Source of the DNA: Phoronis australis
Lineage: Eukaryota > Animalia > Phoronida
DNA: 64,000 nt
NCBI GenBank assembly: GCA_002633005.1
Contig: NMRA01000451.1
Span: 104,892 to 168,891, forward strand
Direction of reading: 5' to 3'
Shown: piece after piece, positions 21,894 through 57,599 of the stretch
How positions within the stretch are numbered: the stretch's first letter is position 1
Layout of the letters: each line of letters begins with the position of its first letter
Made by a program: the position numbers and the translations under genes
Notes under the pieces: model-generated
The model's input: the letters and a program-made list of their open reading frames with translations, nothing else
The model's database searches: none
What the model was told of the DNA's origin: nothing

Positions 21894-22042
21894 CTAGGAA
21901 GAAGATGCTGCCGAACCACATTTATTGGCGCAACGGGCGACCACGCACAAGACAATAAGCACACCAACTCCGGCAATCACATAAATGGCGTAAGTCTTCA
22001 CGAAAGTGCTTTTTAAAGGATCACCAGTAGTGTCCGTCGAAT
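21894..22042 (-). CDS. Terminal exon of the microexon gene: juxtamembrane segment, transmembrane helix and short tail
   Basis: Acceptor tctcttccag|AT in phase 1. Reads (D)STDTTGDPLKSTFVKTYAIYVIAGVGVLIVLCVVARCANKCGSAASSS*, with an about 20-aa hydrophobic run followed by basic/Cys residues. Confidence 0.75.
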
Positions 22043-22344
22043 CTGGAAGAGACATTTGTATTGAAAAAGCACTCCCAAAACACGTGATATTAAGCATCAG
22101 CCTGAGATTGGTACATGTACACTGTATGAGGGATTATTTAGGTAAGTTTCTATAACCGTGACAGTTTGCATTTTCGATTTTGGGGTCAAACTAAGAATAT
22201 CAAATTTTCACTGAACAAGGTTGAGGTGAACATTGTTTCATTCCAGGTCCCCTGTCTTTTCGAGTTATCTCAATCTGTTTCATTTCGTCACGAGGCCATA
22301 TCACGTGCCTTAAATGTCAGTCAAAGTGCACGAAAGTTGCTTAC

Positions 22345-22365
22345 CTCCGGCTTGCTGTCCTGAAC
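22345..22365 (-). CDS. 21-nt phase-1 microexon, (G)SGQQAG
   Basis: tttgtag|GTTCAGGACAGCAAGCCGGAG|gtaagc. Confidence 0.75.
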
Positions 22366-23332
22366 CTACAAAACAACGGAGTGTGAATTCAGGGTAACCT
22401 TATTGACATTCGTGTACATCATTTTTTCTCACGGAGGCAGTGATTTAGTTTAATTCGCAGAAGATGGCTCCGTTAATTTTTCCAGAGCAACATTTGGGCC
22501 CAGGTGCATGTATACGCCGTATAACAACAATGACGTCGCATTATCACACGTCACGTTATTGTTGTACAATGCACCTGACATCATGCAACAATCAAATTAT
22601 CCAGCGGATAACTTTGAAGTTTTATGCAACCCATCCCTGCAGAACACACCTAACCTCAAGTCATCAAATAGTTTAAATGTTAAATGTCAACAATCGTGCC
22701 ACTTTTTCAAGATCAAGCAAAAAAGGAACAGACAAAACGAACCAGAAGCAAAAACGCAGGCAAACCAATGTACATGTACCCTCAAATGGTTGTATGTTGA
22801 TTTGCAGTGAATTTAGTTTCTAACAATAGATGTTTCACACTCGATGACTCAGTTCATTTGTCGATTGAATTTTCCATGCTTCAAAAAAGCAGGCACGCAG
22901 AACCATGGACGTTTGAATGTGGAATTTTGGACAGGTATAAGGAACACTCCCTAAACCCATGTTAAATCAAACCAGTATTCCTTATTGCCGCGAAAATGAG
23001 TCAAAAATAAAAGTAGGCTTTAACTACGAGTAAGAGAATTAGAGCAGGTCTAGGTGGGCAATTGTCAACATCCCAAACGTGTCTGTTCATTCCCAGCCGA
23101 TTCCAAATCTAATATATGAAGTACACTCTGATTTGCAATATCTCCAACTCGCAAAGCGCATTCTGCCAAATTAGCAAACTCAGACAATGATTGTGCTGCA
23201 TTCCAAGTCATAAGTGCCTTCGAGCTGTTTCAAGCCTTTCTTCATATCATGAAGAGTCAGAGTTGCATTGCTCGAATGCATCTCCAACTGCTCTTGATTG
23301 TTTTTCCAATTAAAATAGTTTCACTCATTTAC

Positions 23333-23353
23333 CTCCGGCTACCGGCCCTGAAC
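23333..23353 (-). CDS. 21-nt phase-1 microexon, (G)SGPVAG
   Basis: ttttgaag|GTTCAGGGCCGGTAGCCGGAG|gtaaat (weaker AAG acceptor). Confidence 0.6.
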
Positions 23354-24080
23354 CTTCAAAAGTAGGCTGTGTGAATTTAAGAGCGACATAAGTGACACAT
23401 AAAAACGCTTGAAAGTCGGTTTAAGACCATTTCCATATAAGGTAGGGTGCAATTTTTTAGTAAGTACGAAAAACTTCCAGAGTTTCCGAATCAACAGAGT
23501 AAAGCAAATGTCCAAGAGACAACATAACCGCGGCAACAAAATGAGCAAGTCATTTAAATACCTTCTCGGTTGACTTCATCAGAGGAAAGTGGCAATAAAA
23601 AACTTGAGACCAGATTATGTGACACAAGAGGAATAAATGATATCTGAGAAGAAACATAATATAATTAAGTCATCACTTTCGGAAACGCAATTGGAGGTGC
23701 TGCCAAATTAGTAGTGCGAGGTAAAGATTGTTTCATTCCAAGTCCAACGTGTTTTCTATTTTCACCAAGAACAAGACAGACTCGAACATTCTGAGAAAAA
23801 GCTCCGTGTGGCAAGCCTACAGGTTTATACCATTGGCGACAGCGGTACAACTTGTATTTATTCTGTTGTATACTTGGATGTTGCAGTGCCGGTCGCACAG
23901 TATCTCCCACCTGCAAAGCGCATTCTGCTAAATTGTCAAACTCAGACAATGATAGCTACATTCCAAGTAAGGAGCCCCTTTCAGTTGTTTCAAGCCACTC
24001 TTTGTCATGACGAGGAAGAGTTGCATTTCTCGAATATATTTGCAACTGCATGTTCAGATCCAAAATGTCAGTGTACTTAC

Positions 24081-24101
24081 CTCCGACTCCCGGCCCTGAA
24101 C
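24081..24101 (-). CDS. 21-nt phase-1 microexon, (G)SGPGVG
   Basis: ttttgtag|GTTCAGGGCCGGGAGTCGGAG|gtaagt. Confidence 0.75.
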
Positions 24102-24400
24102 CTACAAAAGTAGAGTAAACGAATTAACAATACCTACACGGTTGACGTCGTCAGAGGAAAGTGACAATAAAAAACCCGCGACCACCTCATGTGATACATG
24201 CAGAATTCAGGACATCTGAGAACAAACATTATGTAATTAAGTCGCCACTTTCGGAAACGCAATAGGAGGCGCTACCAAATTGGTAGTCTAAGGTAAAGAT
24301 CGTTTCATTCCCAGTATCTTCGAGTTGTCTTACTGTATTCCATTTCGCCACGAGTCCATGTTGTGTGTCTTAGATTTCAGTCCAAGTCCACGATGCTTAC

Positions 24401-24421
24401 CTCCGGATCCCGGTCTTGAAC
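24401..24421 (-). pseudogene. Paralogous microexon with mutated acceptor (probable pseudo-exon)
   Basis: tttataa|GTTCAAGACCGGGATCCGGAG|gtaagc. The donor is intact but the AG is changed to AA; nearby AGs give 20- or 14-nt frameshifting exons. Confidence 0.6.
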
Positions 24422-25277
24422 TTATAAAGAAAGGGAGTATGAGTTCAGGGTGCCCTTATTGTCATAGACCAATTGTCTGAAGGAGGCGGAGATTTAAGGT
24501 TAGTTCCTCAGAAATTAGTTCCCTCAGTTTTGGACAAAGCAACATCTGCTGTGGGCAAAACGTGGGAAACCAATACGCCCTGAGATGTTTTTAAATTGAT
24601 CGGTAGTGAATTTAGACATTGATACTTGGTGTTTGACACTCGATGACTCAGCTCATTTGCCAATTGAACTCTGCAAGCTGCAAAACTTCAGTACTACAAA
24701 AGAAGGTATTTTTGCCTATATCCGAAACGTTCAATCGGTACACTAGCCGATGTGACAATATTTGGAGGTTTCTAATTAGTGGAATCTTGGATAGGTAAAC
24801 GGAGCACTCCCTAAAGCCATGTCACATCAAACTGGTACTCATTATGGCATCGAAAACGAGTAATAGCGTAGGATTGGACTAAATGTTACATAACCGAAGC
24901 AGTTCTCCGTGGACTATGGTCAGTATCCGAAACGTATCTGTTCGTTTTCACATGACTTCAAATCGTTTCAACAAGTACAAGACAATTTTGAGAATGAGCT
25001 TCGTGTGGCAGGCCTATACCAGGCTTATACCGTGACCTCTTGTATTTTGTACACTCCGATTTGCTGTGCTGGTCGTGCAGTATCTCTTACGTGCAAAGCA
25101 CATTAAAACAAACTGGGACAATGAATGATATATTCCAGTTCAGAAGTCCTTTTGAGCTGTTTGAAGCCACTCGTTTCATATTATGACGAGTCAGTGTCGA
25201 CATTCTCGATTGTCTCTCCAACTTCACGTTGTTTTGCTCTTGATTTTTGTTCAGTTAACAATGTATCAGTTGCTTAC

Positions 25278-25298
25278 CTCCGGCTCTCGGCCCTGAAC
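25278..25298 (-). CDS. 21-nt phase-1 microexon, (G)SGPRAG
   Basis: cttttgcag|GTTCAGGGCCGAGAGCCGGAG|gtaagc. Confidence 0.75.
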
Positions 25299-26269
25299 CT
25301 GCAAAAGAAGGGAATATGAAGTCAGGCTGATATAAGTGACAATTCAAACGGTTTACAAGGCGGTTTCAGAGTAATTCCATAGGACTTGCAACCTTTTCGT
25401 ACGTACAAACAACTTCCCGGCAACAAACATTTTAAAACCATTTACACATATTCGGAAAGTGACAATAAAAAACCGCAAATACATTACAATATGTGTCACA
25501 CATAGAATACACGACATTCGAGAACAATCATAATTAAATCGCCACTTTTAGGAACCTTTCAACAACCTACAAAACAAATAGAGTGGCATTCAGGATGCAC
25601 TTGTTTTCATTGATCAATTCTCTAACGTCTGCGGGGACTTAGAATGAAGCAAATGTCCAAGAGCTTACGTAAGCATAGCATCAAACACAATTAAATCACT
25701 TGTACAATCGGTTGACGTTATCAAAAGAAGATGGCAATAAAAATTTGCGAATACTATTGCAAAAAGACTTTTAATTTACGTAACGAGAAGTAAATCCAGT
25801 GCCGATTTGCTGCCAAGTTTTACGAAATCGCTGTCGGTGGTCAAAGAGCAGTTGCTGGAACTCAGCATCAGTTTCGTGATACGGCGATCAAGAAAGACAT
25901 TTGCCGATATAGATAGGTATTTTTTCTCCAATTTAAGACCATTGCGGGTGTTGATGTCGAAATCTGTACTACGTATCCTAGGCATAGAAGCAAAATGATA
26001 CAATTTGGTCAACATGTAATGAAATATGTATAAAAAGAATTACAACGATAATCAAAAACCTCTAAACAAAATGACAAGTTTTACGCCCAGGTGTTATCAA
26101 TGCCTTTTTAAGGACAACATGGTCGTTAACTTAGGAATCTTCCCGGGGGTACAGAGAACTCTGGAAAAGCAATAGATGGAAACAGCGGATGATTTTCTGA
26201 TCTCAACCGAGGTATAACTATGCTAAAAAGGCTCTTAGCTTGGTTACAAAATGATGAAACGTTACACTG

Positions 26270-27580
26270 TACATATTACTTGAAGAGCGATCGCCGAAAA
26301 ATCTCGAATAACTCAATAACGGTAAGTGGTAAATAGAAACGTATGGCATACTTTCCATACAGCTTGAAATGATCTACATGAATTCGAAGAAAAAATAGCT
26401 CCAGAAACAACAGACTCGTCGCTCGGGAAACAACTAATCTTGTAAAATAGTCGCCACAGCGCCTTCTGGCGTTTGATATCAATCAAAACCATAAGGCTTC
26501 GAGCAATTAACAAAACAATGTTAAAGTGTGAATTTCATTCGGTCGAATAAAAAGTTTGTCGAAAATGGTAAATCTGAGAAAAAAATTGTTGCAGTTCATT
26601 TGAAAGAGTATACCTCAGAGAATCCACATGCAAAACTTTATGTCATTTTCTCTTCCTGTTTAAAATGAGACCCCAGGCGACCTAAAATGGGTCAACATGT
26701 TCCAGATCCGCCATCTTGAAAGCAACTTCCATTTTTTAGCTCTGAATAATAGCGTGTCATCAGAAACTAATACCTGAAAAAATGGAAGGAATAGCGGATN
26801 ACTCGTCGCTCGGGAAACAACTAATCTTGTAAAATAGTCGCCACAGCGCCTTCTGGCGTTTGATATCAATCAAAACCATAAGGCTTCGAGCAATTAACAA
26901 AACAATGTTAAAGTGTGAATTTCATTCGGTCGAATAAAAAGTTTGTCGAAAATGGTAAGTCTGAGAAAAAAATTGTTGCAGTTCATTTGAAAGAGTGTAC
27001 CTCAGAGAATCCACATGCAAAACTTTATGTCATTTTCTCTTCCTGTTTAAAATGAGACCCCAGGCGACCTAAAATGGGTCAACATGTTCCAGATCCGCCA
27101 TCTTGAAAGCAACTTCCATTTTTTAGCTCTGAATAATAGCGTGTCATCAGAAACTAATACCTGAAAAAATGGAAGAAATTGGTCCAATAATGCGCCCTCT
27201 ACCGGAGGAAACGTTTTTACCTTGGAATCGAAGTGCGCATGCGCCAAGGCCAATATTTGAACGGAAGTTCGATGTGTTTTTATGCATAGCACTTGTCTAG
27301 TTCTATGTTTTCACCGATTTTCAGTTGTGTAATATAATAATTGCGGCTTCTATGAGCATTTGAATCTGAAATTGGAAACAAAATGGCCGCCACGTCCGCC
27401 ATCTTACAACCGATCATGACTAAAAACAACAGGCTTCTAGCACTTCCGGAGATACAAGTTGTGTACAAATTTTATGGAAATTGGACAAAGAATGCGACCT
27501 GTAGAGTGCGAACAATCAAAAAAGGAAAAGAACTTGACGTTAGAGCAACATACTTGGCGAAATTTATTTCGTCAAGTAAA
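26270..27580 (-). mobile_element. HINE-like non-autonomous element, inverted relative to 12150-13280
   Basis: Terminal hairpin tacttggcgaaat/atttcgtcaagta (27551-27578) next to an A-run, and homology to 12160-13060. The lower boundary is approximate. Confidence 0.65.
26414..27180. other. Probable assembly overlap duplication around n at 26800
   Basis: 26414-26790 is repeated almost identically at 26801-27180, directly across a single n. Confidence 0.8.
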
Positions 27581-27649
27581 AATAGACAACACTACAACTT
27601 ATTTTTGCGTTGCTCCAAAAGATCATCGTTGAATAGATATGCTAGTCTT

Positions 27650-28035
27650 TCATGGATGTATCGCCACTGTACACTGGCTCAATATCAGATGTGGGTATTA
27701 CCAAACTGAGTGGATTTGTTGACTTGCTAGAACAATGAGACAGTGTGATGGCAGATAAGCGATTTCTAATTAATAAGCTTCTCAATGAAAAGGGTACACA
27801 GTTGAACATCCTATCCTTTCTAAGCTAAAAAGGTAATTTTTCAAGTGAGGAAATAAGAAAAACAGAAATATCCAGTCTGAGAATACATGCACATGTGGAG
27901 AGAGTCATTAGACGCATCAAAGAAAATCACTTGTTTAACACTCCCATTCCTTTGAACATGACTGGCTCAGTAAATCAGTTGTGGACAGTTGCCTGTTTAT
28001 TTGCAAACTTTAGAGGCCCTATTGTAAATGAATGA
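27650..28035 (+). pseudogene. C-terminal fragment of a DDE transposase (DDE_Tnp_4, ISL2EU/Harbinger group)
   Basis: LYTGSISDVGITKLSG...DSVMADKRF...LRIH..VERVIRRIKENHLF...VNQLWTVACLFANFRGPIV, with internal stops. Confidence 0.85.
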
Positions 28036-28154
28036 TCATGTACAAAAAGTTTTGCAATAAACAACAAGACTTATACAGTTATTTAACTCTTTCAATTTAT
28101 TTCTTGAGACCACACAATATACATTTGGCACAAGACAGTGACTACAGTAACACC

Positions 28155-30410
28155 TCAGCTAGCAGGGGAATCAGGTGACAGATAGAAATTGTAGAAAAAG
28201 TGGTCTACCTTGTCTTTCAGGTCTTGGCAAAATGTCAAATCACAGCGAATCTCTTCCTTATGATAGTAGTTTTCATGCCAAATGAGCAGGTCACACCACT
28301 CCAGTCCAGTAACTGCAAGCTGTATTTGTATCTGCGTGAAATGCTGATGCGGCCTATTTAAATAATATCTTCCATCAGGTGTAACTTTCAGGTACATGTA
28401 GTTGATTACACTAATTGAGGGAGTTTGGGGGGCATTTGATCTCCAACAAACTAAATAGAGGAACTCGCTGGGGGGTCGCACACTTTACGGTCGGGACTCA
28501 CTGCCATCCAGGGTGACCATGGACTAATTATTAAATATTAATACTGCTTGCCACCACATCACTGTATTTGGCAGCTGCATGCGGTTCATTGGCAATACTA
28601 GCCAGCATGGCTGCAGTTTGAATGTAGCGAGTTGATTTGAGGCGTTTCAAAAGAGCTTCAAAATCTTTTTGTCTCACCCAAATGTAATGAACTTTTGAAG
28701 CTGTAATTCTGTGTTTTCTCAATTTATGCTAAAGAGGTGAGCCACTTTGCAAAACTGTTTTTCTTTCAAATGCTATAGCCTCGTCAAGAGATAACATCAA
28801 TCCATCCAGTGCATTTTGCGGATAATGCTGTAAAGGACATTGGTAACGGTTCTTTAAAACTTTCTCAACTGGTAAATCCGGATATTCTACACCATCATAC
28901 AGGTCCATAATAAAATGTGGGTGATGCTTTTGTTGCACAGAGAGTACAAAGCCCTTAGGGAAAAGGCCAAACTTAGTATTTTCCTGGTACTTGGACACCG
29001 TGAGAGCGCAGCAAGTACCATAATGTTGCTTTGAATGGCTTCAAGTGACCGTTTCAAAGAATGAAGGGAAGGATAATGGGTTCTGACAGGGTGTGTCAAC
29101 AGAGATGCTACAGCCCTTCTTGGTTCTTCACGCTCAGCACTGCCATAGCCTACAACTTGTAAATTCTGAAGTACCACAGGTTGTATTTTTTCACATCTTG
29201 GCTGGTGCCACGTTTCTTGAAGGGAGGTCTTAGCAACATCCTCAGGTACAGAAGAAACCCCCAGAAGCTTGTAATTTGCTATTTGATATAACAATTCAGT
29301 AATGTGGCCACAGGCTTATCCAAGACCTTTTGCGCTTGAGCAACTTGATTTTGTCACCTAAGGCACATGGCTAAGATCAATCTGCAATAATAAAATGCAA
29401 TTTCTTTTAGAGCAAATTGAAATGAATAATTGATACTGCTAGTTGAGTTATTTTCTGTCGATGGAAAATTTGACATCATTTTAAATAGGAATGATTTTAA
29501 AATGGCAGCATGCAAATCACTTATTACTGAATCATTATTTTGTCAAGATCTGAATAAATTTAATTTTAAATTTGATCATAGCAGACACTAAACATTTTAA
29601 TACGACCAACAAGGTTAATTTAATGTTTTTCAACACCAAATGTATTTAAGTCAATACATACTCATATTAATATCAAAAATTAGCATGCTACCTCAAATCA
29701 TTTTAGTGACTTCATACTTACAGATAAGTCATGGGGTGGTTCATTTTTCCTCTGAGATCTGAAACATTTTGCTTGCAACTTGCAACCACTTGCAACAGGC
29801 GTTACTGTAAACAAAATTAATGTTTTAGTTTATGATTTCTAAACTGCCCAGATATACAGAAAACAAGAGACCACTTCAGATTGAATTAAAATATGAGTAC
29901 ATAATAGAAACACGTGCACCGCCCATGAAACATCAGTTGCATTTGACGAAATCTCGTAAATTAACTAAACTTAAAACACCCTAAGGGCCTGCAGTAGTTC
30001 AGTCAAGATCCACACAACTGAATCAACGACATTTGAAGTGCTTATAAATTTAAAAATAAATGTGACACCCCTCAGCATTTCAAATATAATTTGGCCAGTA
30101 GTTTTACCTCTCGTGGTCAACTTGGTATCATTGCTTTCTTTTTGTAAAACAAAAACCCAGTGAAACAGGTTTGTTATGACTGACCAGCTGACATCTTAAC
30201 AACAACAACGGAAGAATGTTAATGCAACCTATAAAACTACTTACTTCTTATTGGTGTAATGTAACCTTCGCTGAAATACTTGTACCCTTTGGAGAGATGG
30301 TTCTTTCATGATGATTGCGAGGAATTTTTACAATATGACTCCACAAAGCCAAATGTTAAGTTTGGAACAAGTGTGAGGTCTCGATCAGCTGGCGCAGAGG
30401 AGGCTGCCAT
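28155..30410 (-). pseudogene. Three-exon SWIM + YqaJ (lambda-exonuclease-like) accessory gene of an ISL2EU-type transposon, decayed
   Basis: Exon 30245-30410 (MAASSAPA...KGYKYFSEGYI), exon 29722-29804 (KCFRSQRKNEPPHD) and exon 28155-29381 (CGHITELLYQIA, TSLQETWHQPR, TVLQSGS, RITASK, YYL..HQHFTQIQ.QLAVTGLEWCD). GT/AG borders; convergent with the transposase fragment. Confidence 0.82.
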
Positions 30411-32107
30411 GATTGTAAACAGTTAGTAGTCCATCAGTCCTAGCCTCGCTTTCGATTTTCACTTAATATTCATGAGGCAATATTAAGAAAGGTCTATTGT
30501 CAACACGCTGCAGAAAACAACTGGAATTGGAGGAAGTCGGATGGAAAAATAAAAATTGATTTTAAGCAGTTTTTATTATTTATCAAAATAGTCGTCGACC
30601 ACAAATCTTTAGTCGAAGGATCCACGTTTCGAAAAAAGGGATGGCGGTGTGGACATTCCGTTGCTAGCACACTTTTCGCTTTCTTTCAAGAACGTCCTGG
30701 AAATACGTGAGCCCCCCCTCCCTATTTTGGTCACCGATGATTAATGTGCATTATGATGTAAAGGAAAATCGCTTTCACTCCCGGGAGGACGATGCACTGA
30801 TTAACATTTGCAGAAAATCTACTTTTATGATCCCCATTTCTGTTCCGCGACTAACGAGAAAAAACGAGAAACGGATTCGGCCTTTGTGTTCATATTGATG
30901 CTATCACAATATCCCTTATTTTGATAGATTTATATTTGTTGTTGGTCGAAAACACCAATGTCTTTAGAAATCACTTCGGGGTTTACTGATGTTGGACGAC
31001 TCTGCAAAATCAAAAGTGACGCATGGCATCGCCAGTGACTTGCCCTAGTAACGAACACAGAATCGTTTCCCGTACCAGTCCGATCGCTATAACATGAGCA
31101 AAAAATACCAATTCGTTTCTCGTTTTAGCCATTTAAAAAGACAAAGTGTTGCTGTACCGAAATGTAGAAGCGTAGACAAATGTTCAAATTTGCTTAACTT
31201 CGGATCATCATACATGTATCTCAGGAATGACTGATGGAATCCTCAACTAACTTACATATACAGTGTACTATGTTTCATGCACTATTCTCAAAATCTCTTA
31301 TTAGAATTTGTTCCTTAAATGTTGCACTTGTGCATGACGGATCCCTTGACCTTGTTAGAAAAAAATAATTTTGATAAATAAATAACCTGAAATTATAATT
31401 TAAAAAAGTATAAACATTTTGAGATTTTGTATCAAGTGAAATTAGGCAATGCTATTACCACTGTTGTTTTCCTAACTTGGCAATGTGACCAAATTGCTAG
31501 GAAATTTGTAGGAAGTTACAATCAAATTTGTTTTCTTTTCTCGCACATATAGACATCACATTTGATTTAGGCCAGAACAGAAGCACGAACTTTAAAATTA
31601 GCGCTTAAGTAAATAACAACAGATCTGTCCAACGCTTCGTTTATTACTCTAAACCATTGTCAAGGAAACAGCTCACAGATTCAAAACAGGCGACACAGGT
31701 AGAGAAGAGAATGTACAGATACACGTCAAAATGCATGGTAAGAGGGAGAGACCAGAAATCAAAACAGTTGGAGCTCAACTGGGACCCGTGTTTCTATTGA
31801 GGTAACGCTCAGCATGGTTCAACTTAGGATGCACAATTTCAATGAAACGGCATCTTTAATTCAGTAAAATTTATCTGTGATTACCTCTCACTTGTAACTT
31901 ATCGATCTCCAGTTAAAATGAGGATAACATGTCGTCGGAACCCTTTGACCTGGACATTGTAATCGGTAACCAGTGCTAATCTATTTTAGCACACTTATTT
32001 TATATATTTACTTTATTTCTAATTTGTTTAAAATTTCAATTGGTTTTGAGTAAAAACATTTTAACGAGAGTAACTCGACATCGGACGCAGAAAGTAGAAT
32101 ATAGATA

Positions 32108-32175
32108 TATGTATGTATGTATGTTTGTATGTATGTATGTGTGTATGTATGTATGCACATGTATATGTATATGCA
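32108..32175. repeat. (TATG)n microsatellite
   Basis: Seen directly. Confidence 0.85.
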
Positions 32176-32963
32176 TAGATTATAGACAACAGGTTCGCAA
32201 CTCCGACATTTTCTTCCGTGCTATCCAAGAGGAGGCAACAATCTCCTAAACTATCTGCTGCATTTTAGGGTTAGTTTACTTTGACAGGAAATTCTCGCAT
32301 CTACTTTACTGTCCATTTCAATGAAAAAATTAATAGATTCGGCATTGAAACGCTGTTCAAAGTCTTCCAATAGTAGAACTGTTGGTATCGTGAGTACTTT
32401 TGGCAATGCTACTCGTAATGAATTAAAAAAATCAAACTTCGGTGCCGACTGATTATGTCGTCTGCTTGCACAATACTAAGCAGCATAGTTATCGGACACT
32501 TTTTGATTCGTGGTTCACATAGGCCTACTGAGAAAACTACGAAAGCATATTTGTGCACAAATTCTAAGGAGTACCTGTGAATGCAAAAGATACTTATATA
32601 ACGTTTTGTTTTAGAAGATTATTAATTTTGCTCGGATTAAAAAATGTGCCTCTGTAACGATTTCAATGGTTTAACCTTTGTATGTTTACAATTCAACATT
32701 CTCAAGTGAGCAGTTCTTTTCTTGGAAGTGTTTTTAAGTGGCCCTTACAAGGGCCGTTTGTTGTACTGTGCATCAGCTTTAGGTATAGCGTGAAATGGTT
32801 CTTAAAAGAACCGTTGAATAACAAGAGAACAAATCACATATTATACCGTGCTCATTCAAGTGCTGAAGGTCCTCTTATTTTTAGTTTTCATCAGGGAAGG
32901 TTGGATGAAAACAGAGAAGATGACAATATCAATGACAGTTGTAACACCGTAAATAGATATTAC

Positions 32964-33017
32964 CGTACCCCAACGCTGTCACGAACCCAGTTCTTGTTCC
33001 TGGATCCAGAAGTAATC
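32964..33017 (-). CDS. Candidate 54-nt phase-1 exon, (G)LLLDPGTRTGFVTALGY
   Basis: tctttttttcctacggttcag|GATTAC...GGGTACG|gtaata. Good pyrimidine tract, symmetric and stop-free, with a moderate donor. Confidence 0.5.
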
Positions 33018-35989: not shown

Positions 35990-36005
35990 GCGTGCGTGTG
36001 TGTGC

Positions 36006-36037
<32 letters not shown>

Positions 36038-36052
36038 NTGTGTGTGTGTGTA
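35990..36052. repeat. (TG)n microsatellite containing an n
   Basis: Seen directly. Confidence 0.9.
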
Positions 36053-36321
36053 TGCTTATATGCATTTTGTATACTTAAATGTACTCCAACGTTTCAAAGG
36101 TGAGCAATTTCAGTTAAATGCGAAGTTCATTTTAGAATAAACTGCCGAATACGTTGAGCAGTACAGAGTGCTATATACAAAATCATATTTTATTTAACTA
36201 ATCAGAATTTGAGAAAGTCCTTTCTGGTAGACGTGGTAGATCCAGATTGTACGATCAACGCCCGGGTACCAGTGTGGGTAACCCATAGCTGACGGACAAA
36301 ACGTACTAAATGTCTGCTTAC

Positions 36322-36336
36322 CTGGTCGTACCGGAG
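36322..36336 (-). CDS. 15-nt phase-1 microexon, (A)PVRP
   Basis: ctgtttcttgcag|CTCCGGTACGACCAG|gtaagc; flanks are homologous to those of 44700-44714. Confidence 0.68.
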
Positions 36337-36919
36337 CTGCAAGAAACAGAATCAGCAATCAAGTTTCGGGAATTCCAGAAAAGGTTCACAGTATGATTAA
36401 CTACTTGAAAATTTTCAAGTTTTTTAACCTTTTGAGATAAGAACTGAAGGAGCAATCACCGGAAAATGATGAATCGCATGACACACTTCCCACACCGCTT
36501 GAAATGATCTACACAATGAAAAATAACCGACAACAAAACCTCTCCAGAACCATGGCTGGGCAAACTACAAAATGGCTGCCACATCGCCATCTCATGTCTG
36601 CAAAAACACAAAGTTTTAATCAATATACAAAACACACGTTGTGTGTAAATTCCATTTGTACAGGATAACAAGTTCGACCTATAGCGTACGAGCGAACAGA
36701 AAACTCGACAGAACAACACACTAATGAGAACTAAAACAAACATAGAGAACAGTACTGTTTTTCGCACCTCTCACAATGATCATGTTTAAACAGATATATT
36801 AGTCTCCCATGGTTTTAAACAAAAGAATCTCAGTTTGTTGCTTTCATTGATCACACCCTGACTTTACCTGACAGTGTAATTGTAAGGAATGTTTGATTTA
36901 CTACACATTTCGGGCTTAC

Positions 36920-36967
36920 CTTTCGTGGTCTTGGTCGTGGTCGTGGTCGTGGTCGTGGCTGTTGGAA
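36920..36967 (-). CDS. 48-nt phase-1 Thr-rich (mucin-like) exon, (V)PTATTTTTTTTKTTK
   Basis: gttttttccgtag|TTCCAACAGCC(ACGACC)n...AAAG|gtaagc. Confidence 0.72.
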
Positions 36968-37505
36968 CTACGGAAAAAACAGGAATCACATTCTACATAC
37001 ACTGTTACCATGCAGCGAAACATTTTGAAGGGGTGACATGCTCTTGAAGAAAATCAATGTTTTGATCCTCATATGTAATCCATATCTGATGAGATTGATC
37101 AAAAAACGAATTCGACCTTTACCCTGTTAAAATTGGTATCGTAATGTCCCTTATCTTAATAGGCGAATGTTCCCCCAAAGATCGTTTTTACTTAATCTGG
37201 ATTTGCTGGAAAACGTTTTTTCATTATTTGGGGGTGTGGCAGTTGGTAACCCTCAAGCGTTTTTAAAATATGCATATTAAGGTCCCCGTTATGCAATTTT
37301 CTATGTTTGCTTATAAATTCCTTACTAAGCACTGCATTTTTGTTTTCACCCATGTTTTTATTGTCAGCNGTTTAAACAGATATATTAGTCTCCCATGGTT
37401 TTAAACAAAAGAATCTCAGTTTGTTGCTTTCATTGATCACACCCTGACTTTACCTGACAGTGTAATTGTAAGGAATGTTTGATTTACTACATATTTCGGG
37501 CTTAC

Positions 37506-37508
37506 CTT

Positions 37509-37544
<36 letters not shown>

Positions 37545-37553
37545 CTGTTGGAA
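37506..37553 (-). CDS. Second copy of the 48-nt Thr-rich exon, probably the alternate haplotype
   Basis: Lies in the duplicate across n37369 and differs by AAG>ACG (K>T). Confidence 0.45.
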
Positions 37554-38072
37554 CTACGGAAAAACAGGAATCACATTCTACATACACTGTTACCATGCAG
37601 CGAAACATTTTGAAGGGGTGACATGCTCTTGAAGAAAATCAATGCTTTGATCCTCATATGTAATCCATATCTGATGAGATTGATCAAAAAACGAATTCGA
37701 CCTTTACCCTGTTAAAATTGGTATCGCAATGTCCCTTATCTTAATAGGCGAATGTTCCCCCTATACATGTAGTCCGAGAGCCAAAGATCGTTTTTACTTA
37801 ACCTGGATTTGCCAGAAAACGTTTTTTCATTATTTGGGGGTGTGGCAGTTGGTAACCCTCAAGCGTTTTTAAAATATGCATATTAAGGTCCCCGTTATGC
37901 AAATTTCTATGTTTGCTTATAAATTCCTTACTAAGCACTGCATTTTTGTTTTCACCCATGTTTTTATTGTCAGCGATTTTTAGTGTCGGCTTTTGAGGGA
38001 ATACGTTGTGAATTTGCATAATTTATGCAAATGGAGGCCGCCATTATTAAAAATTTTACTTGTTCATTTAGC

Positions 38073-40003
38073 TATGGTACCAGGAACCACAGGTGATTTG
38101 TCATATTTGCACCTGTGCTTCTATGATCAATTATTCTAAAGAAATGTATTTGCAAGTTTTTTTCATGATATATTTGCATAATTAATGGTTATTAAGGTCA
38201 TCATTTTTTCAAAATTGTATGTTTGCTTTTAACCTCCTTACCAAGTACTGCAGACAGTTTTTTAATGTTTTCGCCTACACCTCCATCGTCAGGGAATTTA
38301 ATGAAGCTTGTTTGCCGCTGAATTTCTATAATATGTGCCGCCATTATTCAAAGTATAATTTGACCTATAGCTGAAGTACCAGGCACCATAGACAAACTAT
38401 ACTTTCACATCTGCACCCATGTTTCTGTTGTAAATGAACTTCATGAAATCAGTTTGCAAACTGTTGCATGATAAATTTGCATATCTTTTACAAATAAATG
38501 GCACCATTATTATACTGTTACTGCTCATAACTTCCTTACGGGTATTCATGCAGATTATTTTCGTGTCATATCTCAGATTTTCATGGTCATCATGAATTTG
38601 CATACTTCGGTCTCGGTCAACACGCGTAATAATATCTCGTAGTCTAGTTGCCAGTCCAATAGCTCCCATAGTGAACCCTGCAATGTTGATTACTGTAAAT
38701 TTTTTTGTTGAAATATATTAAATGATCAGGAGAGCAACATTAGCTTGGTTGCACTTAGTGCAACTTTGAGCATTTTTTGCAATTCAAGATGGCGGATTCT
38801 ACCATTTTGAATTTCGACCAACTTTGTTTTTTTTTCAGCTTGATGACTAACAGGGTCATGTAATACATTGTTTATACCATTTTCTGTGATGGGAGTCCAT
38901 TTCTGGTGTTATTTTACTAATACAGGGTCATCTTCAAGGTCAAGCCAGAGGTCAAAGGTCAAAACTGCCTAGCAGCCTTCTGGCATTTAGTTTTTAACTC
39001 ATTATTTTTCATTTCCTTCGTTAAGCTCTTCAAGATATNATGGTACCAGGAACCACAGGTGATTTGTCATATTTGCACCTGTGCTTCTATGATCAATTAT
39101 TCTAAAGAAATGTATTTGCAAGTTTTTTTCATGATATATTTGCATAATTAATGGTTATTAAGGTCATCATTTTTTCAAAATTGTATGTTTGCTTTTAACC
39201 TCCTTACCAAGTACTGCAGACAGTTTTTTAATGTTTTCGCCTACACCTCCATCGTCAGGGAATTTAATGAAGCTTGTTTGCCGCTGAATTTCTATAATAT
39301 GTGCCGCCATTATTCAAAGTATAATTTGACCTATAGCTGAAGTACCAGGCACCATAGACAAACTATACTTTCACATCTGCACCCATGTTTCTGTTGTAAA
39401 TGAACTTCATGAAATCAGTTTGCAAACTGTTGCATGATAAATTTGCATATCTTTTACAAATAAATGGCACCATTATTATACTGTTACTGCTCATAACTTC
39501 CTTACGGGTATTCATGCAGATTATTTTCGTGTCATATCTCAGATTTTCATGGTCATCATGAATTTGCATACTTCGGTCTCGGTCAACACGCGTAATAATA
39601 ACTCGTAGTCTAGTTGCCAGTCCAATAGCTCCCATAGTGAACCCTGCAATGTTGATTACTGTAAATTTTTTGTTGAAATATATTAAATGATCAGGAGAAC
39701 AACATTAGCTTGGTTGCACTTAGTGCAACTTTGAGCATTTTTTGCAATTCAAGATGGCGGATTCTACCATTTTGAATTTCGACCAACTTTGTTTTTTTTT
39801 TCAGCTTGATGACTAACAGGGTCATGTAATACATTGTTTATACCATTTTCTGTGATGGGAGTCCATTTCTGGTGTTATTTTACTAATACGGGGTCATCTT
39901 CAAGGTCAAGCCAGAGGTCAAAGGTCAAAACTGCCTAGCAGCCTTCTGGCATTTAGTTTTTAACTCATTATTTTCATTTCCTTCGTTAACCTCTTCAAGA
40001 TAT
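38073..40003. other. Probable assembly overlap duplication around n at 39039
   Basis: 38073-39038 is repeated almost identically at 39040-40003, which explains the twin 90-aa ORFs. Confidence 0.82.
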
Positions 40004-43000
40004 GTTTTCAAAATGCTCACTATTACATACATGTACTATATTGGGCCAACTAGTTTGATCACAAATTTCATGAGGGTTGTATGGCATGGAAATGCACATA
40101 CTGTACAATCAGCAGTTCAATGCTCTAGTATGGTTACTGCCCATTACTCCAAAAATACTCCGAAAAACCTCTACTCTGAAGAAACCTTTGTCTCCTCCAA
40201 ATATGAACGCATTTGTTTCATTTTATAAAAATAATACATGCATGCACCCAGTCTAAAATATGGGGGGCTCGAATTTTTGGCAATATGGACCTTTTACAAA
40301 CTAAAAACATGGGACTAAAAACGGGATATCACGTTCAGGGACATGAATTGTGCATTCTTGCCTTTTCAGTGGACTTTTTTCTCGTTTTCTCGGACTTTTT
40401 GTAGTTTTGAGGCGGACGTTTTTGCCCACTTCGCCAAATGGGGGGCTCGTTCGAGCTCCCCGAGCTACCCCCTTTGGGTGCGCGCTTGTAATATGATAAA
40501 TTATCTCTCGATCAAGTGAACTTCAAAGAAGATAGTATACAAGAGTTGCTAACTACAAAAACAGTAATATTGGCAGAGATGAGTCATTGGACTTCATTGT
40601 CCAAATTTATTTTTGTGTTGTTATTTTGTTAGTTAGTAACAAGATAAAAAAACATTCGTGTAATTCTGAGAAAATGTAGGAAAATCGAGTAAAAAAGTCG
40701 TAGTAACGGTGTTTTTTCAGAGTTGAGGACCTTCGGAGTAGCAGTTTTTTCGGAATGGCGGCATTGGCCATTGGAGTATTAACCTGTTACACACCAGTGT
40801 AGTCAACGGAAAGGCTAGATGCGATACTCTGTTGGTTTACAATCTCTTTACAGCCATGTTGTAACTCCATGTCTACTAAAACGGGGCCAAGTCTTATGAA
40901 GAGCTGTTGGTTTACCTAAAGATGGTCCTTCAACAACCATGCCTCAAGGAGACCTGTTTCTTCGTAGGAGGTCACCATAATTATGTACGGCACCTGCGCT
41001 TGTGTAGCAGTCTTCAAAATAAACTAAACGACGTGGAAATTATTTTGGCCTAGAAAACAATAGCGCCTCCATTGCCTTAATTTTCACAATTCGCACGTAA
41101 CTCCATTCATAAATAAACAATAAGTGACTAAGCGCAATAATGTCAACCTAAACTATGATAAAACTTTGACAAAAGTGCGATAAGCATTCGATTAAGGTGC
41201 CAAACATTTCTGACGAGAACTTCATACCAAGTTTAGCAGCTTGACAAAGTTCTTTCGAAGATTATTTTGAAGTTTGCTGTGTGTGGAACGCCTGTCCAAT
41301 AATGTCAAAAAGTTCCACTCGAAGCTGCACACGTGGATGACAAGACGGCAGTACCTGTTGACCTATTCTAAGAACAGGCATACTGCATATCAAAGGAGTA
41401 AAAGGTTCTGGAGTTATAAGGAGCCTTTTAATGAGAGCCGAGCAATAAAGTGGAGAACATAAATCATGTGGAATGAAGGTGGTGAGGAGCAAACGTCACG
41501 TAGTGGAGGACAGGAAATGACTAAGAACAAGAAGGGAGTAGTGGACCTGAACGAGGATGACTAGAGAAAGATTGCACAGGAGATAGAGAAGCACAGATAC
41601 CCGCTCACTGACCAGCTGTCATACCTCCATAAGTTCTGCAATCATCGAGTAGATTCCAGAACGAGCTGGCCATTGGGCATGAGCAGAGCAGTCAAGATTT
41701 ATATTTTTGGTAAGCAGTGAATGTTACAAAGCAATTAAGAAAAATTCAAAATGCTGGAGATGCTGAAGAAACTTGTACTTTCAAGGAAGAACATGGCGTT
41801 GAAACTTTGTTCAGTTGCCAGTTAGTCGTAAGACAGCAGTGTAACACAAAGCTGATATCTTTCAGTATGAACTTATTGAGTCCACTCCCTATAGCCCAGA
41901 TCGGCAAATCCGGCAGTCTGAGGAAGGGTGACAATGCCATTTTGGTCAAATCTCTTCGATTGCATTATGTCACAAGAAATTCTGCTCCGAAGGTGGTGTG
42001 ATTTAGGTAAACCCCGGTACTCTACTAGCCTCCTATCCTCAAGAAGATCCCTACGCAAAGGCCATGAGACGATAACAGGAGGACAAGTTGAGGAATTTCT
42101 GCTAACCCCTGTTCCTAAACATCCCTTTTGCCGCTAAACTATTCTATATAACGCTATATTAAACAACCTTCTATGTGTATGAAGATATTCCCTTCTATTC
42201 AAAATCGAGTGGGTTAAGAAGAGCCACTGTGTAAGTACACATCGTGAAGCAGACGTTGTATAGGTAAATGTTGAAAGTGATGGAAGAAGGCACCCACACC
42301 ATCAGAATCACTTGTGACAACACTGACGTCTCCAAGCTTTTTATTTTGTGGGACGTCTAATATGCCAGTAGACGCCAAGACTCGAATGGACAAGTCGAAT
42401 GGCAGTTTTTCGGACAAGTACCGCCAACTTGAGAGGTCACAAGACGTAAGGGTATTGGACAGAGAACAGTTCTTGGTTTAAACGAGCTGTCAGAGACGCT
42501 AATAACCCCTCTCTGAGTTGACACGGAGGAGTCAAATTGAACTTATCGCAGTCACTGACTCGTGGTCGATTACCTTGAAGCTGTTCCCCATGAACACCGA
42601 CACATGGGGTGGTGAAATTTTCTGGAGAACCAGTTAGTCATCAATACTCAGTAGAAGAAGACAGGTGGCTCCGAAAAGTCGGGAACTTTATTTTATTTTG
42701 TAGTAAGTTCCACAAGTCATAGTTTATGAGTTTTCCTTGGATTAATAACAGTGCCGATCCTAGTTTACACGCGCAGAGTAACTAGTTACTGAGATGTTGG
42801 GATGATATCTTATTCCAGTATTTAGCTATCCATTATTCTTTATATAAGGGAATCACAGAAATGATAATTCTGCATTGCCCATGAATTTAACGTTTCGTTG
42901 CGCAAAAGAGATGATTTTCCTTGTTTCAGTTCTACTTGTCGTTTAACCTCTCATTGACCTGGACTTTGACCTTGCATCCATAAAATATTATAAGAATGGA

Positions 43001-43857
43001 CTCTCCGTCCCAAAAACATTGTAAACCATAAATTGCAGGATAATACACGGTATCATGTTCAAAGTGTGAAAATTAGGCGAAATTCAAGATGGCGGCTTCC
43101 GCCATCTTGAATTATAAAAAATGCTCAAAGTTGCACAAAGTACAACCAAGTTAATTTTGTTCTCCTAGCAACGTATAATAAATTTCCAAAAGAAAACTTT
43201 ACAGTATACAACATTGCAGGGTCAACATTTTGGCAACTAGACTCTCGTGGGATAGTACTCCATGTACGCCACTCTCAGTACGTTTTGTGTATGGAAACGG
43301 GCGTAAGTATTGAATTATAAAAATGCTCAAAGTTGCACAAAGTACAACCAAGTTAATTTTGTTCTCCTAGCAACGTATAATAAATTTCCAAAAGAAAACT
43401 TACAGTATACAACATTACAGGGTCAACATTTTGGTAACTAGACTATCGTGGGATAGTACTCCATGTACGCCACTCTCAGTACGTTTTGTGTATGGAAACG
43501 GGCGTAAGTACACATGTCTTTAACCAAAATGTACTTGAACGTTTAAAGCCTGGAATCCAGTCTGATTTTACACATTTTAACTAAATACTNCCATAAAATA
43601 TTATAAGAATGGACTCTCCGTCCCAAAAACATTGTAAACCATAAATTGCAGGATAATACACGGTATCATGTTCAAAGTGTGAAAATTAGGCGAAATTCAA
43701 GATGGCGGCTTCCGCCATCTTGAATTATAAAAAATGCTCAAAGTTGCACAAAGTACAACCAAGTTAATTTTGTTCTCCTAGCAACGTATAATAAATTTCC
43801 AAAAGAAAACTTTACAGTATACAACATTACAGGGTCACCATTTTGGCAACTAGACTA
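38640..43857 (+). mobile_element. Degenerate Academ DNA transposon; both ends duplicated, probably by assembly
   Basis: Termini TAGTCTAGTTGCCA (38640, again 39606) and TGGCAACTAGACTA (ends 43857; copies near 43244 and 43445), about 300-bp imperfect TIRs and a 3-bp TSD TCG. Internal remnants QRSKRFWS and ETLFSCQLVVRQQ...LSPLP...SGSLRKGDNAILVKSL (41390-41960). Confidence 0.78.
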
Positions 43858-44001
43858 TCGTGGGATAGTACTCCATGTACGCCACTCTCAGTACGTTTTG
43901 TGTATGGAAACGGGCGTAAGTACACATGTCTTTAATCAAAATGTACTTGAACGTTTAAAGCCTGGAATCCAGTCTGATTTTACACATTTTAACTAAATAC
44001 T
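42977..44001. other. Probable assembly overlap duplication around n at 43590
   Basis: 42977-43589 is repeated at 43591-44001; the first copy also has an internal repeat of about 200 bp. Confidence 0.78.
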
Positions 44002-44699
44002 CGAAGCGTTTTATTAAAAAACATACAACTTTGTTGACATCAAACCTTGTTTGGGGGATTTCAATCAGGCCTCGTTCTAGCACCAGCAAATGTTTCATTG
44101 GCGTTCAAGTTAAGTGATAAAAGGAGGATTCAAGTTGTAAAAACTCGTTCAATGCGTCATAGATAGGACGTGATTTTTCTTGGTGGGTGGCCTTTCCCTG
44201 CAGTTGTCGTGTACCTTGCTTAAGGCGTGGTTAACCCTTGCCAATTTAGGAGTCGTCGGACGGAGTCTTCTAATGGTGCTTCAAGCTTTGAGGGTTTTCG
44301 AGGGCTACACAGCATTATTTTTTCAGAGAACTAAGTAGGAAGGTCGTTTTAATGTATGTTAAGAGGTAAAACCGGGTTTGGTGACAGTTTTTGTGTACGT
44401 AATCCACATACGCGTTGATAGCAGTGGGCGGTAACCTGTAGAACATTTCGAGAGCACTTTCACATGGCAGTTTCTTGAATATCACAATACATTATCGTTA
44501 TTTTAAACTGAATTAAACGATTTAAAGGTGCGCTGTTTCTTTAAAAAAGTACGATGTTGATGGAGAATAAACTGTCGCATGCGTTGAGCAGTAGCTATAG
44601 AGCGCTCTAAACAATGTCATAATGATTCTGCATGTATGTCCAACGACGGTACCAGTGAACCTTTGGCTGACGGACAAAAAGTATCGAATATCTGCTTAC

Positions 44700-44714
44700 C
44701 TTGGAGAGTCGCAC
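44700..44714 (-). CDS. 15-nt phase-1 microexon, (G)ATLQ
   Basis: ctgtttcttgtag|GTGCGACTCTCCAAG|gtaagc. Confidence 0.68.
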
Positions 44715-45986
44715 CTACAAGAAACAGAGGTAACCATCTAATTGCAGGAAGACAATAAAGTGTTCACAGTAGCAAATTAAAAAACTGCACTCTACGACGT
44801 GGATAGAGCAATTGCATACACAAACCTACACAAGTGTGATACAGACCAAATGCCTTATTTTCGGCTAACGCCATAGTCAGTAAGAAAGCATTGGCGTCAA
44901 TAAATGTATGTTGAACAACCTAATAATACATCAGTGTTTTTCATAAATCAGCCCGTTGGTATCAAGAGTTACAATTCTTCACAAAGGACGTGACCTATAG
45001 GACAAGTCTGGGCAGCATGCGTGACTGAATACTCGTACAAGGAAGACACGCATTTCCAAATGTAGGTGGGTATTTTCAAATTTAGGCAGTGGGCTGAAGC
45101 TCATAGCAATATATTGTGAGTACTTAGTGGGGCAGCCTGAATTTTTGTATAACAAGGTAATACACCTATAATTCAACTTCAAACCAGGTATGTGTTTTTT
45201 AATCTTTGCGTTGAAGTCCAACTGTGATGACCAGTTGTTTTTCACTTGTTCAGTCCCCAGGCTTCCCAGGCCTTAGACATTACCCTCATGTCATGTCCCT
45301 AGTAGAGATGGTGGCCATGTCCCAGGCCCTCCATATGCCGGAAGCTTACGAAGATTGCTGCAATTGTAACTACATTGAAGTGCCCAAATTGCCGGCGTCC
45401 TTGTCATAATCTGAGGACAGGGGATGCCCCTGCCCACTTTGTGAAACGTAGATTGCCATAATTGTAAACCCAGCGTCTACAGTATGAGCATATGATTTCA
45501 ATCACTGCATAGGTACATTAGCTGACTTGTTTTCACCTGCATCATTGATTGTCAAACGTTCAAAATTTGTAGGCGAAAGAACAGAATGCATGTAAATTTG
45601 TTCGGGTGGTGGTAATTCAATTCCAGATAAGCCTGTCTGAAAAAATGCATACCAAAACACCGGTCGTTAAAGGCTGAATTAGTGTTAACGGTTCGGATTT
45701 TTTCAGATGGAGTTGCATCGCGAGCAGCAGCTTAGTCTGAGAACCTGAATGTGCAAATGAAATAGTCCTTTTGCGAGTTCATAACAATAACGCGAGATTA
45801 CGTGAGACTTAACTGTGCCGTCACGGGAAGTGGGGCAAAAGCTTGTCGATGGGCCCATTTGCCCAAAACGTTAGCAGAGTGTATTCTGTTATTTTCTTCC
45901 ACTTTTTGGCCGCTTAGTTCGAAAAATGCCAAACAAGCATGGCTGTTATGACAAATGAAATTCAGATTCGCACTGCAATACGTTGT

Positions 45987-46780
45987 NNNNNNNNNNNNNN
46001 NNNNNNNNNNNNNNNNNNNNNNNNNNNNNNNNNNNNNNNNNNNNNNNNNNNNNNNNNNNNNNNNNNNNNNNNNNNNNNNNNNNNNNNNNNNNNNNNNNNN
46101 NNNNNNNNNNNNNNNNNNNNNNNNNNNNNNNNNNNNNNNNNNNNNNNNNNNNNNNNNNNNNNNNNNNNNNNNNNNNNNNNNNNNNNNNNNNNNNNNNNNN
46201 NNNNNNNNNNNNNNNNNNNNNNNNNNNNNNNNNNNNNNNNNNNNNNNNNNNNNNNNNNNNNNNNNNNNNNNNNNNNNNNNNNNNNNNNNNNNNNNNNNNN
46301 NNNNNNNNNNNNNNNNNNNNNNNNNNNNNNNNNNNNNNNNNNNNNNNNNNNNNNNNNNNNNNNNNNNNNNNNNNNNNNNNNNNNNNNNNNNNNNNNNNNN
46401 NNNNNNNNNNNNNNNNNNNNNNNNNNNNNNNNNNNNNNNNNNNNNNNNNNNNNNNNNNNNNNNNNNNNNNNNNNNNNNNNNNNNNNNNNNNNNNNNNNNN
46501 NNNNNNNNNNNNNNNNNNNNNNNNNNNNNNNNNNNNNNNNNNNNNNNNNNNNNNNNNNNNNNNNNNNNNNNNNNNNNNNNNNNNNNNNNNNNNNNNNNNN
46601 NNNNNNNNNNNNNNNNNNNNNNNNNNNNNNNNNNNNNNNNNNNNNNNNNNNNNNNNNNNNNNNNNNNNNNNNNNNNNNNNNNNNNNNNNNNNNNNNNNNN
46701 NNNNNNNNNNNNNNNNNNNNNNNNNNNNNNNNNNNNNNNNNNNNNNNNNNNNNNNNNNNNNNNNNNNNNNNNNNNNNNNN
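45987..46780. other. Assembly gap (794 N)
   Basis: Run of N; the poly-X ORFs here are artefacts. Confidence 0.99.
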
Positions 46781-47828
46781 AACAAGAGCAATATGGCGGG
46801 TTTTGCCCCCTTTCCGGTGACGTCACATTGACTAACGAGAAACTCGCAAGTGAGCTATTCAAGGATAACGACCTTGTGGTTTTAAGTCAAGTACCACATA
46901 TCATGCTACGAAAATAGAAAGACAAATGGATCGTGAAGAGTGAAGAATCCTTAGTTGTCCGTTGCCTTAATTTCAAAAGTAAAGCAAGAATTTGAAGCAA
47001 TGCTTCAGAAATGTGGTGTGCATGGTGTTATTTGGACAGGCAATCTTAAGAAACGGCTGTTGAAGCTACCCACAGTTGCATTTTCTGCCTAACATGTTAA
47101 CGTGGATGGACTTACGTTTGGACTACCGAGCCAACTTTAAGTTCACCCACACACACCATGACCTAGAAGAACTTGCACTAGTGCGACATATCCCAATTTT
47201 AAATGGAGCAGAAGTTGTCGCTTTGTGCGTGAAAACGAACAGCTAATGCGATTGACCTATCGCACGCTCCATCCTTTGTTTTACCCGCCTCCGGTTCAAT
47301 AACGCTAGGACCTCGCTAAAAGGCAAGACTTCGCGAGATTACGTGAGGTAATGCCGTTCATTTAAATGAGAACACGTGACGCGTAGGTCCTAGCGTCTAC
47401 TGAACGCACGACCGGTTACGTGTTGTTTGTCGGGTAAAATGGCGGCTTGGAAACGAAGGTGTGTCAAAAATGCTGCAATCTAATTGGTCAGTTAAGTCAT
47501 CACTCAAAATCGTGGCATTAGGACAATTTCGGGGTGCAAAATAAGACCAGCGTTTATGTAACAGCAGCTAATAGTACTTTTGCTTAACCTAAGGTTTGCG
47601 TCCTCGCACAAGAAGTGGTACAAGTTACCCTGGAACAAGTTATCGTACCTCAATGGAGCAGGTTACACTTGTTTAACTAACGTCCAAACAGCCTCCAAAC
47701 CTAGCAAGTACTCGTTCCAAGAGTGTCTTGTTCTGAAGTAAGTCTGTGTGTAGGGCACTTTGGAATTTTCTGGGTTAAGTTAATAAAAGAGTTTTGAAAT
47801 ATCCAAGCTTCAATTAAGGTGTACTTAC

Positions 47829-47840
47829 CTGTGTATTTTG
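47829..47840 (-). CDS. 12-nt phase-1 microexon, (x)KYT
   Basis: ccttttcttctttttcag|CAAAATACACAG|gtaagt; very strong pyrimidine tract and consensus donor. Confidence 0.65.
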
Positions 47841-57589: not shown

Positions 57590-57599
57590 GTGCGCATTC

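Follow-up and report, generated by a model that had tools for sequence, protein, structure and literature searches.

The stretch of DNA analysed here, hereafter the window, comprises 64,000 nucleotides (nt) of the phoronid Phoronis australis (contig NMRA01000451.1, positions 104,892 to 168,891), and its minus strand carries a gene built largely of very short exons. This microexon gene is real, expressed and spliced, with junction support covering its 3' exons. The window contains the 3' half of the expressed gene while the 5' end is missing, and nothing convincing as an upstream exon or signal peptide was seen among 12 scored minus-strand donors in 47841-64000. The initial annotation of the locus had proposed nine internal segments of 12-54 nt joined to a terminal exon encoding a transmembrane (TM) helix. 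All ten segments were found in place with AG and G/GTAA borders and open phase-1 frames, each of the nine internal lengths is divisible by three, and joining the ten by coordinate gives one frame with a lone stop at its end. None of the listed open reading frames (ORFs) of at least 90 residues encodes the protein; the locus is an RNA-supported gene that is invisible to an ORF scan.

Splice sites were scored with an approximate matrix written by ourselves from general knowledge, using a cut-off of 11 for an acceptor-donor pair. At this cut-off, the minus strand holds 10 pairs on 8 segments and the plus strand none, whereas 40 order-2 Markov null sequences gave a mean of 0.15 pairs and a maximum of one, arguing that the segments are not due to chance. 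In the matrix ranking of the minus strand, the proposed segments occupy most of the top places, and only two of the nine microexons fall below 11, namely 32964-33017 through its donor and 23333-23353 through its acceptor. A plain rule scan returned nine minus-strand candidates, consisting of eight of the nine proposed microexons and 37506-37553, versus three on the plus strand; 23333-23353 was the segment that failed it. The five exons upstream of 25278 are predicted from sequence alone.

Splicing was followed in RNA data carrying one shared species label, namely three raw-read runs (X1, X2 and X3) and one contig run (X4), which were aligned to 20600-26400 at 90% likeness with about 18-19% of each raw run read. 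Listings comprised 15 of the 26 joints and 12 of the 14 inserts, together with 40 of the 280 letter differences and 24 of the 328 loose ends, and the results below draw on these. An index of sequencing runs listed no RNA run for the terminal exon. In the alignments, minus-strand depth over this exon was estimated at about 49 in X1 and 37 in X2, with zero coverage in X3 and none in the X4 contigs, which cover repeat-like parts only. Stranded junction reads between the proposed segments and the TM exon were found in X1 and X2, that is, in two of the three raw-read runs, and the direct joints have CT..AC ends, equal to GT..AG on the minus strand, at the predicted borders. Besides being joined directly to the exon starting at 22345 (Table 1; exons are named by their first coordinate), the terminal exon reaches it through an extra 21-nt exon in 7 X1 and 9 X2 reads. 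Further upstream, 24 X1 and 19 X2 reads join 22345 to 24081, 19 and 27 join 23333 to 24081, and 18 and 17 join 24081 to 25278. In addition, a variant unit connects 22345 to 25278 in 20 and 13 reads, and 24081 reaches 25278 by way of a 24401-copy variant in 23 and 29, the letters of the latter variant lying between 24103 and 25276. For the joints into 25278, the 'side' value of 25 is one above that expected with the 54-nt exon as neighbour, which unspliced reads can explain, another neighbour being possible.

Table 1 Exons and 3' end of the microexon gene, listed from upstream to downstream (score pairs are acceptor/donor).
Feature	Position	Strand	Evidence
12-nt phase-1 microexon (predicted), most upstream found	47829..47840	-	top splice pair of the window, acceptor 11.0, donor 8.9
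15-nt phase-1 microexon (predicted), duplicate of the 36322-36336 unit	44700..44714	-	splice scores 7.1/7.1; intron flanks 70-72% alike
Further copy of the 48-nt Thr exon; probably an allelic copy placed in tandem by the assembly	37506..37553	-	duplicated block around single N at 37369
48-nt Thr-rich phase-1 exon, predicted O-glycosylated	36920..36967	-	sequence and splice scores
15-nt phase-1 microexon (predicted)	36322..36336	-	splice scores 5.6/7.8; paralogous flanks
54-nt phase-1 exon (predicted), least secure upstream exon	32964..33017	-	acceptor 7.2, weak donor 0.9
21-nt repeat exon, spliced	25278..25298	-	three listed downstream joints, 61 reads X1, 59 X2
21-nt repeat exon, dead acceptor (AA for AG), donor intact	24401..24421	-	one-base variant spliced in reads
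21-nt repeat exon, spliced, with a pair of one-base variants in reads	24081..24101	-	joints to 22345, 23333 and 25278
21-nt repeat exon, weak AAG acceptor; used in one read class, bypassed in others	23333..23353	-	acceptor -0.3, donor 4.0
21-nt repeat exon, spliced to the terminal exon	22345..22365	-	direct reads 26 X1, 25 X2
Terminal exon, coding part: short polar linker, predicted TM helix, 13-residue two-Cys tail, stop	21894..22042	-	Kyte-Doolittle hydropathy, RNA depth
3' untranslated region (UTR), end not fixed	21570..21893	-	RNA depth 4-6 in bin 21570-21763, X1 + X2

Four 21-nt exons were derived from the reads. Three of them differ from window copies at one of 21 places, and the fourth, which encodes seven residues of acidic character, matches nothing in the window even when three mismatches are allowed. 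One of the three is the spliced variant of the silenced copy 24401-24421. At the joint 23351-24079, the 'both' value is 3 in X1 and X2 versus the 4 predicted from the 24081 exon of the window, in keeping with a one-base variant of that exon accompanying the 23333-24081 junction; the one-base 24081 variant is also present in four X1 reads. The initial annotation had overlooked 24401-24421, the read-only 21-nt exon and the second Thr-exon copy at 37506-37553.

Taken together, the junctions suggest at least three exon chains in the reads, two of which carry letters foreign to the window. The first chain runs 25278-24081-22345-terminal exon, the second 25278-variant unit-22345 and then probably the acidic exon, and the third 25278-24401 variant-24081 variant-23333. 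Exon letters that are absent from the window cannot be produced by splicing the window sequence, and with two such chains much of the variation would lie in the DNA, either in alleles or in paralogues. The chains therefore favour alleles or paralogues over the combinatorial skipping known from flatworm micro-exon genes (MEGs). Overall, we lean towards a reading in which the tandem 21-nt exons are spliced to a predicted membrane anchor, giving a type I surface protein whose stalk differs by allele or gene copy. The variable stalk of the initial annotation survives in so far as transcripts differ in stalk length and make-up, but the MEG-style skipping it invoked is called into question by the foreign letters in the chains.

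If such skipping were nevertheless at work, each allele would give several stalk isoforms, chiefly by leaving out 23333, 32964 and the extra seven-residue exon. The read counts could be taken this way, as 24081 has its alternative downstream partners in similar numbers (24 and 19 versus 19 and 27) and its alternative upstream partners as well (18 and 17 versus 23 and 29), while the extra exon accounts for 7 of the 33 X1 and 9 of the 34 X2 junction reads of the terminal exon. The sites at 23333 and 32964 are weak, and every small exon is symmetric, a feature shared with MEGs (PMC4671649, PMC8293314). Yet different junctions accompany different non-window sequence variants, the assembly lacks an AG altogether at one of the bypassed copies, and no joint among those listed demands skipping inside one haplotype, making skipping a doubtful account of the variation.

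The transcripts that enter 23333 bear on a further alternative. About 23 reads in X1 and 27 in X2 enter this exon, and no joint out of it, including to 22345, is among the 15 of 26 joints listed, though rows with 8 reads appear there. Without input from 23333, the read balance of 22345 is 44 in and 33 out in X1 and 32 in and 34 out in X2. The joined peptide of the initial annotation keeps its frame by coordinates, but the joint 22365-23333 that it requires is absent from those listed. Intron retention after 23333 was rejected at depths of 0.11 and 0 in 23122-23315. A scan for an alternative last exon in 1-23332 found none of 31 scored minus-strand acceptors followed by a phase-1 frame with hydropathy above 1.52, a weak test that would miss the real terminal exon too (acceptor 0.1). 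These transcripts could come from a locus other than the window, with two or more recent paralogues sharing near-identical repeat exons and differing at the 3' end, and the window locus itself encoding one fixed stalk. Paralogues would fit the presence of three chains in each run, the 23333 transcripts without a listed link to 22345 or the terminal exon, and the extra exon absent from the window. They would also fit the 3' UTR. There, at five listed positions within 21858-21879, every covering X1 read (16 of 16 or 19 of 19) disagrees with the window, and the reads at these positions carry at least four to seven further differences. The SmPoMuc genes of Schistosoma mansoni are described as organised likewise (PMC2576457). 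However, the 23333 chain keeps the exon order of the window and matches two window exons well enough for placement, and the data are explained as well if individuals of a very heterozygous species were pooled; paralogues with fixed stalks seem rather unlikely. In the same region, five X1 molecules start at 21849 (depth 16 beside it), 45 nt beyond the stop, and the nearest downstream AATAAA lies at 20521; position 21849 may mark where the transcript ends or the border of a diverged allele.

The window itself offers traces of how the exons arose. On alignment, the introns around the five 21-nt exons are 63-80% alike, which indicates that the 21-nt units were duplicated together with their introns, and we read the 21-nt exons as products of tandem duplication of exon-plus-intron units. 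Compared with one another, the exons show 2 to 5 differences over their 21 nt, chiefly in codons that lie between a fixed Gly-Ser and Gly. The two 15-nt exons, 8 kb apart, show a comparable relationship, with flanks 70-72% alike (local score 57 versus a maximum of 17 in 200 shuffles) and no further occurrence of the flank elsewhere in the window. These paralogous flanks support both 15-nt exons as real units of one gene. The exons themselves share 7 of 15 letters, below the expectation from the flanks (binomial p 0.03 at 72%), a hint from one pair only that the 15-nt exons may change faster than the introns.

Other duplications in the window are of a different kind. A block of about 585 nt is duplicated on both sides of a single N at 37369, with 576 of 584 aligned letters identical, and near-identical flanking blocks of about 380-970 nt with 95-99% identity occur at four of the five single Ns (26800, 37369, 39039 and 43590). 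These blocks are probably haplotype overlaps, in which two alleles were placed end to end at scaffold joins, and tandem duplications around those Ns are for this reason not to be trusted. Given this pattern, a genuine second Thr exon at 37506-37553 is unlikely. It could be argued that short-read assembly collapsed a longer repeat array into the window, or joined parts of it chimerically, the gains, losses and missing links being assembly effects, as the window contains five single-N joins and a gap of 794 Ns, with four of the single Ns between near-identical blocks, and as one spliced exon is missing from it. Against this, the array at 21.9-26.4 kb is free of Ns and its units, at 63-80% likeness, are too diverged to collapse, and an assembly artefact is accordingly very improbable.

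Under the preferred reading of variation by allele or gene copy, phase-1 exons whose lengths are multiples of three would allow a unit to be gained by duplication of exon and intron without breaking the frame, consistent with the duplicated array. A unit could also be lost by splice-site mutation or deletion with the frame kept, as illustrated by the dead acceptor of 24401 and the variant spliced in the reads. The assembly haplotype would then yield a three-unit chain that omits 24401 and probably also 23333 owing to their dead and weak acceptors, respectively. Other haplotypes or copies may yield a chain of at least four units with 24401 and 23333, or alternatively a three-unit chain probably linked to the extra acidic seven-residue exon.

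Several points weigh against this reading. The chains were pieced together from separate junction counts and from two columns of the read alignments, 'side' and 'both', rather than from individual reads or matched DNA. Three chains exceed what one diploid locus can hold, so pooled animals, paralogues or real skipping must be called upon, and the use of the extra exon in a minority of terminal-exon junction reads also fits partial skipping. The 23333 transcripts may be more than 10% diverged at their 3' end, derive from a paralogue, end in a different last exon or be missed through a limit of the alignment program. Finally, type I topology and function are deduced, as neither a signal peptide nor an N-terminal domain or homologue turned up.

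In the predicted protein, the best 19-residue Kyte-Doolittle mean of the terminal exon is 2.67, followed by an Arg and the short tail with its two Cys in a simple window scan. A polar tail after a hydrophobic helix is typical of a membrane-spanning anchor rather than a glycosylphosphatidylinositol signal. The 92 predicted ectodomain residues include 21 Thr, 19 Gly, 8 Pro and 6 Ser (35 of 92 being Thr, Ser or Pro), and their composition points to a glycosylated, flexible spacer below an unseen N-terminal part. The Thr run would be O-glycosylated, and the Gly/Ser/Pro repeats may space an N-terminal binding part from the membrane. Since the 13-residue tail is too short for a signalling domain, adhesion or recognition would be the likeliest role. 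In a homology search with the 48-residue terminal-exon peptide, which is a weak test, none of 26 candidates gave a score, and the two homology matches among 1.84 billion representatives were rejected as tandem-repeat proteins summed over 24 and 9 stretches. The peptide matched no Pfam family, its best Atlas score (0.88, to an unnamed cluster) lay below the lead threshold of 0.9, and a 28-letter microexon pattern had no matches in metagenome contigs. Full-text searches of the literature found no paper on the gene, a weak result since the gene is nameless.

The gene is best placed as a new case of a known design, represented by SmPoMuc, the IgG3 hinge, chicken Muc13, the BG genes and flatworm MEGs. 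In typical MEGs, the microexons are mutually unrelated, and the tandem 21-nt exon-plus-intron units resemble SmPoMuc or the IgG3 hinge more than a typical MEG. In SmPoMuc, 27 bp repeat exons are reported to be tandemly duplicated with their flanking introns in units of about 1 kb, variation combining gene copies, repeat number and splicing (PMC2576457). The same duplication of repeat exon plus flanking introns is found here, a likeness of design for which no sequence relation is expected. Unlike the SmPoMuc units, which are described as more than 94% identical, up to about 20 in number and directly behind the signal peptide (PMC2576457), the five units here are 63-80% alike, lie beside a predicted TM helix and have splice sites of unequal strength. 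Human IGHG3 shares the spacer of tandemly repeated short exons, with two to five hinge exons of 15-residue units by allele in the account of PMC8674132, whereas the units here are Gly-rich, seven residues long and at least one is silenced by acceptor mutation instead of deletion.

MEGs are characterised as having a signal peptide and variation generated by skipping (PMC8293314), a coding region mainly of symmetric exons of at most 36 nt (PMC8293314, PMC4671649) and, in an operational definition, at least seven exons with a run of at least four consecutive exons below 70 nt and divisible by three (10.1101/2020.04.08.031872). They include the Thr-rich, membrane-anchored MEG-32 and are described as changing fast in sequence (PMC4671649, PMC8293314, 10.1101/2020.04.08.031872). 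The present gene resembles them in having a series of short symmetric exons upstream of a longer terminal one. Nine predicted exons stand in a row, four of them in overlapping junctions whose linkage is indirect (25278, 24401 variant, 24081 and 23333), and 10 or 11 exons are predicted in the window, of which RNA supports five, plus two read-only or variant exons, across separate junctions. Within the known 3' part, nine of nine small exons are symmetric and seven of nine measure at most 36 nt, the two longer ones being a point of difference from MEGs. Several chains are present, as skipping would produce, though they carry different sequence variants. In a simple hydropathy scan, the C-terminal hydrophobic helix, basic residue and short tail agree with a type I membrane mucin-like protein.

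Further likenesses are found in other animals. Chicken Muc13 is described with a Ser/Thr/Pro-rich stalk in separate 20-residue exons for which alternative splicing was proposed (PMC1552070), and the STP stalk exons of CD46 are reported to be alternatively spliced (PMC7709105). Like these, the protein here is a predicted single-pass membrane protein with a stalk split over exons, but their exons are longer and accompany folded SEA and CCP domains, none of which was found in the window. Chicken BG genes have 21-nt repeat exons with allelic expansion and contraction (PMC4046983), as the gene here has 21-nt repeat exons, yet the BG repeats encode cytoplasmic heptads. The aphid bicycle genes likewise show many small exons of one phase in a non-flatworm animal, although in phase 2 and in putative secreted effectors (10.1101/2021.09.24.461719).

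At this locus, the indications that haplotypes or copies have gained and lost exons are unusually clear. Exon birth and death appear to be in progress, with tandem copies of which one is dead here and spliced in other animals or gene copies, and the spliced exon missing from the assembly is a further sign of it. Should the variation be allelic, the gene would parallel, in an invertebrate-type setting, the polymorphisms of the IgG3 hinge and of chicken BG, and would be a candidate for a role in recognition. As a caution, multiple microexon chains in RNA need not mean combinatorial splicing. More speculatively, and with little confidence, one might envisage a hypervariable recognition protein diversified at two levels in a non-flatworm animal, with exons switched on or off by allele through splice-site mutation or insertion, weak exons skipped within alleles, and small exons evolving faster than introns. 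Its role would be in self/non-self, gamete or pathogen binding, the 23333 transcripts would represent a second anchoring form, and the system would be MEG-like outside parasitic flatworms.

Several neighbouring features were noted in the window. On the same strand, 16 kb downstream of the microexon gene, an intronless ORF of about 930 residues (2856-5660, minus strand) encodes a hydrophobic N-terminus, many leucine-rich repeats (LRRs), an LRRCT-like Cys motif, one immunoglobulin (Ig) domain and a short hydrophobic stretch near its end. The relatives of this LRR-Ig protein are distant, at 22-33% identity among the 120 of 625 matches listed, and its LRRCT-Ig part had 0 of 337. This intronless gene and the Pao-type retrotransposon described below mark the DNA as that of an animal. 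Fragments at 14432-19629 (plus strand), lying between repeats 83-87% alike, resemble by eye a non-LTR (long terminal repeat) retrotransposon reverse transcriptase, with no Pfam match for the three pieces tested. In the intron 25298-32964, short ORF pieces at 28155-29315 (minus strand) without a Pfam match are reminiscent of YqaJ- and SWIM-type DNA-transposon domains. A 3-nt segment at 9973-9975 (minus strand; strong acceptor 9.4, fair donor 3.9) could have arisen by chance or be a very small exon belonging to a different gene. A broken Pao/BEL LTR retrotransposon (DUF1759, zinc knuckles and Peptidase_A17) occupies 52651-56214 on the plus strand, and a 195-nt direct repeat (52204-52398 and 57398-57589) may be its LTRs. 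Short repeats at 20970-21440 and 22510-22640 are heavily covered on both strands in all four RNA runs, with reads continuing into unrelated sequence, and are interspersed elements; one such repeat sits in the intron above 22365 and has an inverted copy at 1225-1355.

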